Shown here one piece after another: positions 27,001 to 42,000 of a DNA stretch of 64,000 nt. Each line of letters opens with the position of its first letter. The first letter of the stretch is position 1. This DNA comes from a plasmid: the sequence record NZ_CP013691.1, one strand, 5' to 3'. Made by a program: the position numbers.

Positions 27001-30000
27001 TTTTAATAAAATACAATATATGAATACCACAAAATTATATGAGTTTAATGTCATTTGTAAGAAAAATGAAGAATATCAAGCCATTGATATAGTATGCAAT
27101 TCTAGCGATGCTTCATATCAAATATTAAAGAGAATATTCGATAAAGTATCAATTAATATTAAAGAATATTTCTTCGCTCTCTATGTATCCAATTCAAACC
27201 AAATAATTGGATACAGTATGCTTTCGATGGGTGGAATGGCAGGAACGGTAGTAGATATTAGAATTCTTTTTAGAGAAGCGATATTAGCAAATGCAACGGC
27301 AATAATCATCGCCCATAATCACCCAAGTGGAAAACTAACACCTAGTGAAGCTGACAAAAAACTCACTCAAAAAATAAAAGATGCTAGTCTGTTTTTAGAC
27401 ATCAAACTATTAGACCATCTTATCATCTCAGAATACGGCTATTTCAGCTTCTTAGATGAAGCTTTCCTATAAAATTATAGTACAGACTGCTTATAATCTA
27501 ATAATGGTTTTAAGCAGTCTTTAAAAGACTTCTTTTCCTTATGAAAAGAAAAATAATTTATCTAACAAATTTAATTCTATATAATATAACAATTTAATAT
27601 AAAACCCTTTTAATAAATATCAAGATGAAAAAAGCATACATTTTAGGCGTATTCTTTCTCTGTCTGTATTTAGGTTTTGCCATATACAAAACCAATAATA
27701 GAGAAGGAATACTCCCCAAGCCTCCCACACCAGCTGAAGCAGCAGTAAAACTGCAAAAGGTAAAAGCGGAGAAAGAAGCCAAATGGCGGAGAAAGAGTAA
27801 ACTACAAGATTTAAAAATAGAAGTAGAACAAAATCCAACACTGAAAATAGTTACTTCAATACTTGGTGGTCTAATCCTATTTATTTTACTTGTAAAATAT
27901 TTTAAAGATCCTAAATTCAAATTTAGTGGCTTGTTCTTTAGCACAGCACTATCAATACTGATACTTTATATAATGTATCGAATATTAATCCACCTCACAG
28001 CACTATCGCTTGTGGACTACATGTAATAAAATAACCTTTTAATAAAATACAATATGGAATCGAATAATAACAAGCGTGCAGTATATCTCAGAAAGATAAC
28101 TGACGATGTTTTAGCGATAATTGACAAACACAGAGAAGAGAAATCAATTAAAACAAAAACAGAAGCAGTAATTGACATAGTAAAGAAATACCCTATGCAA
28201 CAAATCGTACTCGAAAAGCAACGAAAAGAAATTCAAGCTCTCCAATATGAACTTGATATACTACGTGAGCACTTCGAATCATTAGAAAATATAATTGCCT
28301 ATATCAAATCAAAATAACAACCTGGTCTACAACAAATCAATTACAAAGAGTCTAGAAATAGGCTCTTTTTCTTTTCGAAAGAACCCTTAATCCTAGTCAA
28401 TGAATAATTTTTATTTTGTTGATTACAACTTTCAACAATGCTTTTGAAATCACAAACAATTAAAGCTGTATTGGATTTATCTTCTAATTATTACTACATT
28501 AAAAACTAAAATAATTATTGCGATTAAAAGAATAGCAAAAACTCCTCCTTTTGCTGCTGTCGGATATTGTCTAGTTCTAGTTGCTTGCATATATTTTGAG
28601 ATAGTAATGTAAACTAAGAAAACCAACCCCAAAAAAAAGAAAAAGTTTATTAATGAATATATATTAATGTTTTCGAATATTTTCATGATAAATAAATATT
28701 AAGGTTTATAATTGTTGTAGTTATCTCTTCATAATGATTATGATAATTGAAGTTATTAGCTTATCAAATATAATACCATAATCTACTCTATACAATAAAA
28801 TTACAATTCAATAATTTATCTAACAAATTATTTAAAAAAGGGCGTCAAAACTATAATCTACACTGAGTAATGAAAAGCAACAAATTAAAGATTTAGCAGC
28901 TGTACTGTAGCCGATTTTTGTATACAAACCTCATTATTAGCTAAACAAAAAAAGAGTCCATTGCTGGACTCTCTTCTACTCTTCTACTGTTCTAATACAT
29001 CAAATATTGTCATTTGGAGAGGAATTTTCTTTTTGGTTTTTGAAATAATTGGATTATTTTCTTTTTTCTCTTCCCTTTCTTTCATTTTCTCAACAAATTT
29101 TGGGTCATTGGATGCTACTGAAGTTGTAAAATTAACTTTGGTAAATTCCAATTTATCATTGGAATAATACTCTTTAGCCAATCCTATTAATTCAACTTCA
29201 TTGATAAATCCCCTTTTCATTTTTTTTACTTCAGAAGCTATGTATTGACAACACTCCTTGATTGTCTTTTTTTCCTTTTGAAAGATAACGGCAAATTCTT
29301 GGTTGTTATCTGCAAGATTGCACAATACCTGTTCTATTGCTAATTCTGTTGGGTTCATATTGTATTTTATTAAAGGTTAGTTATTTGTTGTATTTGAGGA
29401 ATACAGTTTAAAAATAGTTTTTCTATCTCTTGATGGTAGATACTTTTGCAATTACCGTATCCTCTTTGCTGAATAATTGTATTAGTGTATAAATCAAATT
29501 CTATTGTTTCAGTAGGTTTAGAATTGACCTTAGCCGAGAACAGTAATCGACTTTCTTTTTTATAATAGCCATTGACATAAACACAGTGATTTAAAGTATT
29601 TCCTTCCATTTTAACTTCTTCAATGCTCTTTAGCGGTTCAATGCTAATATTCTTATTTTGAAAATGAAGAGGAAAATATTTTTTTAACCTATCAATATAT
29701 ATCACATTTTCAGCTATCGTTTTATTGATTGTTGCTCCCTCCATTCCCTCTTTTTCTAATTTTTCATATCGTTTCAACATATATTTATTATGTTCTAAAA
29801 TTAGATTTTTGGGAAGTATATATTTTGGAGAAAGCACATCTTTATTGAGTTCTCGTAGATTTTCAAGGTAATCAAACCAAACTTGAATATCTAATGGTGT
29901 ATAATTGTTTTTAAGCGCTATTTTAATACTTCTCCAATTTTTCTTAACCTCCATTGGGTTTTTGATAAACTCCTTTAAAAACCTAGTATTTTTGCGTTTA

Positions 30001-39000: not shown

Positions 39001-42000
39001 AAAACGGCGTCAAAACTATAATATTTCATACTTAAATTAGGTCTTATACACCTATTTAAGATACAAAAATCTTTCTTCTTAAAAAAGTTGTAGAAAACAA
39101 ATATACATTTTAAATTATTTAAATAATTTATATAACAAATTTAATTGTATATAATTATTTAAATCACTATATTTGCTTATAACCTTTTAATAAAATTATT
39201 GATAATGAAAGTAACACATCTAAAAAAAGATTGTATTCAGAAAGAATATACCTACAAAAACCAACTTATAATTGAATTCGAATACTGGAACAATCCAATA
39301 TCATATTGGTGTATCGATAATTGGAAAGTAGAAGAACTCTTTACATTCAAGCATTCGGATATTAATGCATATGACATAACTATTGAAATTAGAAGTGCTG
39401 CAATGCCCAACGGAGAAACCCATTACGGATTATATTGTAATGCTCTTGATACTTCCAAACAACCTTATAGATATCCTGGTTATCATGAGCACACGAGGGG
39501 GAAAGACTACCTCACCGCAAAACAAGGATTACTAATTGAGCTTAATTCGATAATTGAATTTAGATATCCTCAATCTCATTGGAAAGAAATAAGCCAATGG
39601 ATAAAAAACAACTACACAGGGCAAACCACACTATTTTAAGTAACAAATATGAGCAAGAAGGTCTAAAGCCTTCTTGCCCAAAAAAAGTACAATTATGCAT
39701 CAATTTATAATAAGAGCCGTAAAAAATAAGAAAGAGGATCCCTTTGGGATGACAGTTAATGATGAGCACGTATATTTCTTTTGTTCTTCATTAAAAGACC
39801 TCAAGGCAACTATGAGACATATTAACCCTCCCGGATATAGAATTCATTCAGTTAACTGGTTCTCTAAGTATATAAAGCTATTTAATAATGATTTGACATT
39901 ATATGATGGCTTATTTGGGCATGAAAAATTTAGAATAGTCCGCATTTTTGAAGTTCCTTCAGATTACACTGATTTCAATTACACAAATAAATCTCAACAA
40001 ACATATACTTTAAAAATATTCAATAGAACCGCTTTGCCCTATTTGGAAACTAAATTCAAAACAGTGTAAATAAAATATTATGAGTAATTTATCTCCCTCT
40101 TTTAGTTTATAAAAACGACCGTTTTACTATACTCAATTCTTATTTTACTTTTCTTATCCTTTTCAAATAAAAACAATGTTTTTTAGTTTACATTGTGGTT
40201 TACTTTCAAAAACAGTTTACTATATTTGTAACTAACCTTTTAATAAACTTTTTAATATTTAAATATGATAAACTACACAGACAATCCTACGGGATTACAC
40301 ATTGAGGATTCTTTCACTTATAATAAAGTAGATCCTTTGATCAAACTTTACAATAAATTAAATCTTCTTTTAAAAGACTCCAGCATGATCAAGATTGGAT
40401 GTTATGAAATAACCAGGACCATTCTAGATGCTGAATTAAATATCAGAGTCTATTCAACATCCGATTTTTCTTACTTTGATATTAACAAAGATAATTTAGG
40501 TGATTTCTCTTTTCACACTGAAAGAGGATCTAGAGAAACGTTACTGACAGTTGAACAAGCAATTTTTAATATAACTGAATTGATGGACTAATTTTTCTTT
40601 TCCTCAGAAAACCTTTTAATAAATATCGAATGAAACATCAACATTTATATGACCTAATGGAAATTAGTTCAATCATTTTCCTATGCGTCTTAATAATTAT
40701 TACATTGGCTATCAGCTTAATTAGATATTACAAACGAAAAAAAACAAATTAGATATGAATTCAGTTATTCCCTCGTTGCTTAATTCCCTCATGGAAAAGT
40801 ATAAAATCAGTGCAGAAGATGCTGAAATTTTCTTAAATGAAGAATACCAGGAACAAACCTCAAAATCGACGTATGGCGGAGCATCTTATACTCAAATAAT
40901 TCAAATATGGCTTGATACTCTAGCAAAAGGAGAATCAATAAAATTAGATATGTTCCTTATAACAAAATTGCCATTCATAAGAATTCCCCATTTAACAGCA
41001 GTTCTAGGATTTTATGACGTCCTACTCGAAATGAAAGACACTTACAACAGCTCATATATTTCATTTGAAGAGAAGATAGACTCTATCTGCAATACAGTAG
41101 ATAATAACATTTATAAAACATACGATAATTTTGTTATTCCTATCAGCCTAAATAAAGTAATTCAATGGGGACTTTACCAAAATTTAGAAGTAGTAAGTAG
41201 CTTTTTCTCTTCAAAAGAAAACAAACATTTTACTTATGACTATAACGATTTTAAAAATGATGAAATAGCAATTAATGAAGCAAAAAAAATATTGGAGAAC
41301 ACTTCTATTGATGTCGTTTATTTCAACATTATAGGAACTCCTTTTGCAGAATATGAAAGTGAATCATTATTTACAATTCCTTTCCTAATTGAAAATATCC
41401 ATACTAGAGAGTATAATAAAAATACTGAAGCATATACCTACACTAAACTTAAAGCTGCTTCTGATTTAGAACTCTTGGAGTTTATACTAAATGAAACATC
41501 ACTATATGATCAGCAATCTTCAATGTAACCAATGTTCAATAGAAAGACAATAATCGAAACTATATGATTTTTGGATATGCACGTGTTTCAACTAGTGACC
41601 AAAATATTGAGTCACAAATTGAAGAATTAAAAAAACTAGGAGCTGAGAAAATCTATTCAGACAAAGGTTCTGGAAAAGATTATAATCGAGTTGAGTTTAA
41701 ATTACTTTTAGAAAATTTGCGCGAAGGAGATACATTAGTAGTTACTAAATTGGATCGAATAGGGCGCAATTTAAAGGACTTTATAAGCCTATTTGAAGAA
41801 TTCGGAAAGAAGAGTATAAAAATTGAAATAAACTCCTTAAAATTAGATTTTACAACATCTGAAGGGAGAATGTTTGCTAATCTTTTCGCGAGTATTGCCC
41901 AATTTGAACGCGAACTCAACAGAGAACGCACAATGATTGGATTGAGAGCAGCAGCAGCAAAAGGGAGGAAAGGAGGAAAGCCTAAAGGACTTTCTCCAGC

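Follow-up and report, generated by a model that had tools for sequence, protein, structure and literature searches.

Does a short word repeated along 10 kb of a conjugative plasmid mark the sites of a single DNA-binding protein, and if so, would these sites serve replication, gene regulation, or partition? This question is raised by a region of the plasmid with the sequence record NZ_CP013691.1, of which 64,000 nucleotides were analyzed (the window; positions refer to it unless stated otherwise). A 17-bp box, GGCGTCAAAACTATAAT, occurs here in two settings, as a tandem array with a period of 21 bp and as a part of four dispersed, composite units designated U1 to U4. A first-pass annotation had described both settings and suggested iterons or operators bound by one protein, with an origin, a partition-like site, or a family of small structured RNAs as further possibilities. 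As judged from the anatomy of the sites, the boxes are putative recognition sites of one plasmid DNA-binding protein, an explanation that deserves slightly more credence than doubt.

The box was searched for in the window with up to three mismatches allowed, and shuffled sequences (n = 100) served as the control. Ten matches were found compared to 0.41 expected by chance, and none of the 100 shuffles reached this number, so that the repeat is real; a minus-strand match with three mismatches at position 34802 was one of the 10 and was treated as a chance event. Seven copies are exact (positions 28841, 33591, 35112, 36428, 38828, 38870, and 39006) and three are degenerate, those at 38849 and 38891 with two mismatches each and that at 38910, which was found with a 10-mer core. 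All 10 copies are on the + strand and confined to 28.8 to 39.0 kb of the approximately 70-kb plasmid.

The array at 38828 to 38926 (+) consists of four good copies at 38828, 38849, 38870, and 38891, which follow each other at a distance of 21 bp, and the degenerate fifth copy at 38910. Tandem Repeats Finder reported a period of 21 bp with 3.8 copies at 38826 to 38905, and a conserved 17-bp word alternates in this design with variable 4-bp spacers. The start-to-start spacings from the array to the lone exact box at 39006 to 39022 (+) are 21, 21, 21, 19, and 96 bp, which amounts to 178 bp or 16.95 helical turns when counted from the first copy of the array. The gap in front of the lone box is filled by an A+T tract of 80 bp (38926 to 39005; 86% A+T) that belongs to the top 1.6% of the 80-bp windows of the plasmid backbone, with the promoter cassettes being even richer. 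The regular spacing that the first-pass annotation had noticed is thus present, including the additional copy at 39006. The array is located in a 685-bp intergenic control region that separates the operon of a zinc-ribbon protein from the operon starting at 39199.

In the dispersed units, the box opens a larger module, in which A5G, the 17-bp box, 8 nt, a 23-mer (AGTAATGAAAAGCAACAAATTAA), a 29-nt spacer (28 nt in U4), and a palindrome (TTGTATACAA) follow each other. U1 extends from 28835 to 28927 (box at 28841 to 28857, 23-mer at 28866 to 28888, the 29-nt spacer, and the palindrome at 28918 to 28927), U2 from 33585 to 33677 with the same order of blocks, U3 from 35106 to 35198, and U4 from 36422 to 36513, all on the + strand. 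An alignment confirmed these four copies with a core of about 93 nt; about 15 nt more on the downstream side are common to U2 and U3 (AAGTTTTCAC). Box, 23-mer, and palindrome are 100% identical in all four units, and the 23-mer and the palindrome are present in the window only within units. The spacer of U3 is equal in length but unrelated in sequence to those of the other units (21 to 31% identity, which is the random level), the sequences 3' of the palindrome are unrelated among the units (17 to 38% identity), and the genes downstream of U2 and U3 share an amino acid identity of only 40% over the first 93 residues. Identical blocks around a free spacer of equal length are as expected for binding sites with a spacing constraint. 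Since the noncoding blocks are kept far tighter than the genes and since their spacing is constrained, the units should represent composite DNA sites for proteins and not an RNA or a coding sequence.

The settings of the units differ. U1 is located between the terminator of the minus-strand PcfK/AcrIIA9-like gene and the promoter of a minus-strand gene for a 69-amino-acid (aa) protein, U2 in the divergent intergenic region between a 105-aa gene (33132 to 33449, minus strand) and the gene for paralog A (33754 to 35001, plus strand), and U3 downstream of the terminator of paralog A and ahead of paralog B, which most likely starts with the ATG at 35275. U4 is an orphan copy that is flanked by the terminators of paralog B and of a minus-strand 131-aa gene, has no gene downstream on either side, and is a mosaic of an upstream part similar to that of U3 and a unit similar to U2. 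The second paralog gene most likely begins at the ATG at 35275, as annotated for plasmid pMA84474, and not at a TTG at 35221; as a consequence, the units end about 75 nt and not 60 nt upstream of the start codons.

A further repeat, the E-box AATAATTTATATAACAAATT, precedes every unit and had been missed as a separate repeat. It is positioned at 28810 to 28829 (+) upstream of U1, there as AATAATTTATCTAACAAATT, and at 33536, 35053, and 36370 upstream of U2, U3, and U4. The window contains 10 E-boxes, all between 26.9 and 39.2 kb and nine of them on the + strand. The E-box represents positions −62 to −43 of the canonical promoter cassette of this plasmid, which is composed of the E-box, TTG, 20 nt, TAyATTTG, CTyATAACCTTTTAATAAAAT, and the ATG, and which is the promoter of the genes for RadC and the methyltransferase and of the genes at 36918 and 39199. 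The E-box also occurs inverted at three minus-strand promoters (28686, 31154, and 33449), where it lies 39 to 58 nt ahead of the −7 element. Homogenized copies of the cassette are present at 26925 to 27019, 31489 to 31582, 36919 to 37042 (minus strand), and 39109 to 39198, with partial copies at 27551 to 27624 and 40221 to 40264; two of these stretches (36962 to 37039 and 39117 to 39194) are 99% identical and inverted relative to each other. The cassette also carries a perfect 14-bp inverted repeat (AATAATTTATATAA and TTATATAAATTATT) around its −33 element, which could be an operator for a global repressor.

Outside of the plasmid lineage, the box was found only as single, chance-level matches. 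A scan of 185,579 genomes of species representatives, one genome per species and thus without further Myroides strains, for the exact 17-mer yielded 31 loci, and 38 more came from the metagenomes of the Joint Genome Institute, all of them single matches in unrelated organisms. About 1.2 × 10^12 bases were scanned, for which several tens of chance matches to a 17-mer are estimated, so that these counts are at chance level. No match appeared in viral contigs searched with the 23-mer, a two-box pattern, or the E-box. A distant blastn search of PLSDB with the array, the unit, and the promoter cassette, and a tblastn search with paralog A and a 144-aa protein, retrieved pMA84474 only, while searches with the relaxase and PcfJ reached only distant plasmids of Bacteroides and Bergeyella; the record of the latter is fragmented and not collinear and was set aside. 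Exact-protein look-ups returned near-identical copies only, and the retrievable relatives are 98 to 100% identical. One contig with 98% identity contains 18 substitutions in 650 bp, none of them in a box or in the array; for the array itself, about 2.8 substitutions were expected, so that their absence is weak evidence. A genome-wide miniature inverted-repeat transposable element, the finding that would have spoken against the first-pass annotation, can be rejected, because the genome and metagenome scans gave only single matches at chance level, the repeat is confined to 10 kb of the plasmid, and it has no terminal inverted repeats: the ends of the units (AAAAAGGGCG... and ...TTGTATACAA) are not inverted repeats, and their flanks are unrelated. 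The box family is specific to a rare plasmid lineage.

How might these sites function? With four to five boxes on one face of the DNA helix, 21 bp or two turns apart, the array may form a cooperative, iteron-like platform, which the sixth, in-phase box on the other side of the A+T-rich tract would join. The single boxes would be part of a composite control module with fixed spacing, built from the E-box, the box, the 23-mer, the spacer of fixed length, and the palindrome. At these modules, the box protein together with readers of the 23-mer and the palindrome may set the transcription of the flanking genes, or the modules may titrate the protein. The 17-bp word, the 4-bp spacers, the 21-bp phasing, the in-phase additional copy, and the intergenic single copies fit putative iteron- or operator-type sites of one protein. 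The anatomy, the restriction to this plasmid, and the conservation in blocks around a free spacer are observed, whereas binding, the identity of the protein, and a link to replication or regulation are inferred.

Several observations weigh against the boxes being protein-binding sites. The box could not be assigned to any Rep, ParB-type, or regulator protein, and every neighboring protein that was searched is an orphan. A single-sequence AlphaFold2 model of an 87-aa protein is all-helical and found no match in the PDB, and that of a 177-aa protein, with a predicted local distance difference test score of 38, was unusable. Both proteins display a ribbon-helix-helix-like (RHH-like) N-terminal pattern by eye; neither gene is preceded by a box. 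The zinc-ribbon protein, which has three modules and is encoded divergently from the array, the 87-aa protein, the 177-aa partner of ParA, and paralog A have no relatives beyond near-identical copies, except for two weak matches in the case of paralog A, and no protein-family match was obtained for the other neighboring proteins searched. Some of the conservation, moreover, could come from gene conversion among the copies, with U4 as a mosaic.

For the array, an assignment as a vegetative origin or copy-control platform of the iteron-like kind is tentative and falls short of being probable. The iterons of theta-replicating plasmids, such as those of RK2 oriV, P1 oriR/incA, pSC101, and R6K gamma, are repeats of 17 to 22 bp that are phased at 21 to 23 bp in clusters of three to seven, and iteron copies outside of the main cluster titrate or handcuff the initiator. 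Here, at least three direct repeats of about 17 to 22 bp with a 21- to 23-bp phasing are present; like iterons, they are phased direct repeats beside an A+T-rich tract, with additional copies outside of the cluster. The geometry of the array, the in-phase copy across the A+T tract, the local density of repeats, and the lack of another origin candidate would all agree with an origin at this position. Two of the three top-scoring tandem arrays of the window are located at 38.5 to 39.2 kb, and the only other tandem array of the backbone is at 15145 to 15224. Sequence searches of the flanking and the other unassigned plasmid proteins against Pfam, NCBIfam, PHROGs, and PDB revealed no Rep family, so that the origin of this plasmid still has to be placed somewhere.

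An origin is opposed by the lack of a recognizable Rep gene adjoining the array, or on the plasmid at all, and by the absence of DnaA boxes with up to one mismatch over 33.5 to 44.8 kb, within 5 kb of the array, both of which separate this locus from the theta-plasmid iterons. Unlike in those systems, the additional copies are also single ones, part of a larger module with a 23-mer and a palindrome, and scattered over 10 kb of accessory genes. The skew at the third codon position (GC3) of the + strand is negative for both gene orientations, without a switch at 38.9 kb, and remains so across most of the backbone (8000 to 42000 and 62000 to 64000), in all but two short genes. Its uniform sign did not locate an origin. 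This argues against a bidirectional origin only, because a unidirectional one gives no switch; either unidirectional replication or a strand that is repeatedly single stranded during transfer would be in line with the uniform strand bias.

Alternatively, the boxes as protein-binding sites may constitute a pure regulator or centromere-like array, which is unlikely, more so than an origin. For a regulator, the single boxes reside in the intergenic control regions of what may be an establishment-type gene block: the four units and the 10 E-boxes lie between 26.9 and 39.2 kb among the genes for RadC, the AcrIIA9/PcfK-like protein, PcfJ, and an orphan C5 methyltransferase. Immediately ahead of the mob operon with the DUF5712 relaxase, in intergenic sequence that is otherwise A+T rich, a G+C-rich island with the inverted repeat GCAAGA...TCTTGC at 23610 to 23680 is probably the nick region of the origin of transfer (oriT), which would make 24 to 42 kb the probable leading or establishment region. 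An oriT at the box array is unlikely, since the G+C-rich inverted repeat of the nick-region type is at that other position. On the other side, the array is 240 to 400 bp away from the nearest start codons, which speaks against a classical operator, and neither side of U4 offers a gene to regulate.

The closest documented analogue as a regulator is EGeRS2/Reg576 of plasmid p576 from the pLS20 family, where one RHH repressor binds cooperatively to direct-repeat operators upstream of establishment operons, which leads to a transient expression after transfer; the operators are dual heptamers on both sides of a strong sigma-A promoter, and one of the copies is situated in front of the repressor gene (PMC8708921). 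Both plasmids are alike in having several conserved noncoding sequences that are confined to one part of a conjugative plasmid, upstream of variable establishment and anti-defense operons. They differ in that no top-strand promoter, repressor gene, or autoregulated copy was identified on the plasmid studied here, and in its separate five-copy array distant from any promoter.

With respect to partition, arrays of direct repeats are typical of the ParR, ParG, and omega centromeres, the OB sites of KorB from RK2 are palindromes, and pSM19035 has its omega sites as 7-bp heptads immediately before the par genes. Dispersed sites plus clustered direct repeats are common to KorB, omega, and the locus described here, and in the known systems one protein reads both and acts in partition and as an operator-binding protein. 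The box of this plasmid, in contrast, is an asymmetric 17-bp sequence, and a distance of 12 kb separates the array from the ParA gene (25972 to 26736), which speaks against a centromere, as does the lack of a tandem array in the intergenic region between ParA and RadC upstream of ParA. The 177-aa gene adjoining ParA is an orphan. Taken together, the kind of element is known, and the locus is a variant of it with a design that matched no described system, because a 17-bp word is used alone in a phased array and again in a three-block module of fixed spacing. It is conceivable, albeit doubtful, that an unrecognized initiator, a flanking orphan such as the zinc-ribbon protein, binds the boxes as iterons and thereby couples the copy number to the establishment and anti-defense genes.

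The most serious competitor of a binding protein, although unlikely in itself, is a promoter on the other strand. The consensus of the −7 element of sigma-A in the Flavobacteriia is TAnnTTTG at positions −12 to −5 (PMC9723704). Read as its reverse complement, every good box contains TAGTTTTG, which fits this consensus perfectly and had escaped the first-pass annotation; this offers a reading that needs no box protein and counts against one. The chance of such a motif in a random 17-mer of this plasmid is about 0.03 as estimated from the motif density. The box would then be the core of a bottom-strand sigma-A promoter, composed of TAGTTTTG and the start region, and the units would be regulated promoters directed leftward, U1 and U2 as second promoters of the 69-aa and 105-aa genes, U3 and U4 as sources of RNAs of about 110 nt that end at bidirectional terminators (35005 to 35032 and 36322 to 36349), and the array as a promoter cluster aimed at the zinc-ribbon operon. 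In agreement with this, good bottom-strand terminators are indeed found about 100 nt downstream of U3 and U4, and genes are downstream of U1 and U2; the conserved part of the unit would cover about −85 to +12; the variant array copies are changed only outside of the −7 core; no perfect −7 element exists between the array and the zinc-ribbon start codon; and TAGTTTTR occurs 34 times in the window compared to 14.9 expected. A related word, TTTTYCTAGTTTTAT, is likewise arranged in tandem and points at downstream genes at 15152 to 15206 and 38529 to 38575.

What such a promoter would lack is a canonical −33 element. No TTG is present at the canonical distance of 19 to 21 nt, positions −35 to −33 being TTT and the nearest TTG being 24 nt away, and in the array the −33 position falls into the neighboring box at a distance of only 13 nt. 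RNA polymerase covers about 70 bp, and five promoters 21 bp apart could not all be occupied at once. The sequences GACGCC and ATTA around the −7 element are exactly conserved, which is beyond the needs of a sigma factor, and at U1 and U2 canonical promoters (TTG-N20-TATATTTG) are already available nearer to the genes. Two other transcriptional explanations were rejected. A top-strand promoter for a sigma factor of the extracytoplasmic function group has the CGT in the box but no AAC 16 to 17 nt upstream, and the LexA motifs of Bacteroidetes, GGA-N5-TCC and CTAA-N5-TTAG (PMC8565304), match neither the palindrome nor the box.

That the units encode a family of small structured RNAs, one of the early suggestions, is not supported, because they mostly fold no better than shuffled sequences and have neither an Rfam family nor antisense targets. 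Six of the eight single-strand folds gave z scores of +0.9 to +2.5 relative to shuffles, with top-strand values of +1.5 for U1, +1.6 for U2, and +2.5 for U4; negative z scores were obtained for U3 only, −0.7 on the top and −3.3 on the bottom strand. No unit matched Rfam, complementary targets of at least 11 nt were absent from the backbone except for the palindrome itself, and U3, as the only divergent copy, displays no compensatory pattern, its spacer not keeping the common helix. Within the window, the only Rfam match was a Flavo-1 RNA motif (RF01705) at 31361 to 31442 (+), with 43.5 bits compared to a gathering score of 42, which is located between an E-box copy at 31232 and the cassette of the orphan C5 methyltransferase gene and thus inside of the probable establishment region.

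Transcription of the unit on the top strand from the half-cassette provided by the E-box, as a small RNA or as a 5' leader with a mini-open reading frame (mini-ORF), is rather improbable as well. The paralog mRNAs would then have U2 and U3 as their leaders, and stand-alone RNAs would arise from U1 and U4. All 10 E-boxes lead, in their own orientation, to a gene, the Flavo-1 RNA region, or a unit, and U2 to U4 retain a TTG, an A+T-rich spacer, and weak −7-like words (TAAATTGT and TAAATTTA) before the box. The top strand also contains a mini-ORF, MKSNKLKI, with the ATG and five codons inside of the invariant 23-mer and a stop codon, TAG or TAA, that is kept in three copies. Nevertheless, a canonical top-strand TAnnTTTG is missing in the stretch from the cassette to the box or the genes as well as in and after the units, and the folding and target searches argue against a functional transcript, too. 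The mini-ORF shows no synonymous variation and is completely changed in U3 into an unrelated ORF of 20 codons, which indicates conservation at the nucleotide level. Downstream of U1 and U4, the hairpins have no T-runs on the top strand, and the tandem array of boxes alone is left unexplained. A bottom-strand ORF of 32 to 40 aa across the unit was rejected, since its frame is broken in U4.

With still lower probability, the repeats are functionless products of cassette duplication and gene conversion, homogenized promoter debris in a recombination-prone accessory region. The region is indeed full of near-identical noncoding cassettes, including a 78-nt pair with 99% and a 118-nt pair with 91% identity, and the mosaic U4 has no adjacent gene to serve. 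Gene conversion alone, however, would not keep blocks perfect while the spacer of U3 is randomized at constant length, the 17-mer is reused alone in a precisely phased array, and the substitutions in the 98%-identical relative avoid the boxes.

Finally, it is very improbable that the units are signals on single-stranded DNA after conjugative entry, either as Frpo-like hairpin promoters or as priming sites for a DnaG-type primase: all copies are oriented alike on one strand, whatever the direction of the neighboring genes, in a probable leading region near the probable oriT and a CHC2/Toprim primase gene, but tandem direct repeats form no hairpins, the short units mostly fold worse than shuffles, U1 and U2 lack the upstream arm that could pair with the box in the other two units, and 241 nt around U2 folded as DNA gave z scores of −1.0 (top) and −1.25 (bottom) with near-empty centroids and no long promoter-rebuilding hairpin, which excludes an Frpo-like hairpin promoter. 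The Frpo/ssi promoters in the leading regions of F and ColIb-P9 are hairpins of about 300 nt that rebuild the −35 and −10 elements, and dispersed same-strand repeats upstream of anti-defense genes are their pattern (PMC11541004). The units resemble them as dispersed noncoding repeats of the same orientation in a leading region rich in anti-defense genes and differ with their length of about 93 nt and the lack of a significant single-strand structure.

Additional direct repeats share the 685-bp intergenic region with the array and are also real, as the first-pass annotation had stated. An A repeat of 20 nt, ATAAAACTAGGAAAAATAAA, is present twice at 38529 to 38580 with a spacing of 32 bp, and a B repeat of 34 to 35 bp three times at 38606 to 38701, with the conserved sub-blocks ATGGTGTTTAC and TTTTCCTTATTAT; both are found within 38529 to 38701. 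The exact 11-mer ATGGTGTTTAC exists in the window only at the three B-repeat sites. The B repeats may serve the resolvase-containing operon on their right side, either as a recombinase (res) site or as a binding site of another kind. A second dispersed word, ATAAAACTAGRAAAA, occurs at 1014 to 1028, three times at 15152 to 15206, and at 38529 to 38543 and 38561 to 38575. Reversed it reads TTTTYCTAGTTTTAT, contains the −7-like TAGTTTTA, and is always aimed at a downstream gene; it is in tandem inside of the tra region and has the TAGTTTT core in common with the bottom strand of the box.

The region and pMA84474 from Myroides albus P34 (NZ_CP102755.1), a conjugative multidrug-resistance (MDR) plasmid, are 100% identical. 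That record contains a terminal duplication of about 14.6 kb (its positions 1302 to 14590 and 71188 to 84474), so that the true circle should have a size of about 70 kb (about 69.9 kb) and not 84.5 kb. The plasmid codes for a Bacteroidetes-type transfer system, a DUF5712 relaxase, the CHC2/Toprim primase, and ParA, and its gene block includes RadC, the PcfK/AcrIIA9-like gene, PcfJ, and the orphan C5 methyltransferase. Tandem pairs of paralogs of orphan acidic proteins are encoded at 33754 to 35001 and 35275 to 36318 and at 30683 to 30901 and 30933 to 31154. Paralogs A and B have only an N-terminal domain of about 90 aa in common (40% identity), which is repeated inside of paralog B; in assembly GCA_026627945, paralog A is cut after 157 aa and an integrase gene fragment follows immediately downstream, which suggests an insertion.

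A resistance island with a higher G+C content extends from 42259 to 62030 and is bounded by two copies of ISBbi1, an insertion sequence of the IS1595 family. It contains four ORF pairs that are similar to the annotated pairs of an integrase and an IS91-family transposase in pMA84474, and its arrangement differs from that in pMA84474. Compared to the latter, positions 1 to 28000 of the window (for instance, 4600 to 6100) exhibit many single-base deletions in homopolymers, 10 of them in a 1.5-kb alignment, and a drift of the offset over 24 to 28 kb suggests further single-base deletions, with 28 to 42 kb being collinear with the record. These deletions break the coupling-protein gene and other ORFs, and they look like long-read assembly errors and not like biology.

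As judged from the near-identical pMA84474, whose record lists MYO-1, OXA-347, erm(F), ere(D), aadS, and sul2, the plasmid carries resistance genes of clinical relevance. The replicons of large plasmids of the Flavobacteriia are essentially untyped, and MOB-suite assigned no replicon to this plasmid and classified it as non-mobilizable despite its full Bacteroidetes-type transfer system. If the box is only a promoter word, the finding would be an ordinary one. If the array is an origin or a master control site, it would provide a replicon marker, a target for incompatibility-based curing, and a handle on the initiator or regulator. As sites of an establishment-region regulator, the boxes would extend the repeated control of establishment genes, so far known from Bacillus and enterobacterial plasmids, to the Bacteroidota. 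Should an unrecognized initiator indeed read the boxes, they would represent a combined switch for replication and establishment and a new replicon type for the MDR plasmids of the Flavobacteriia.

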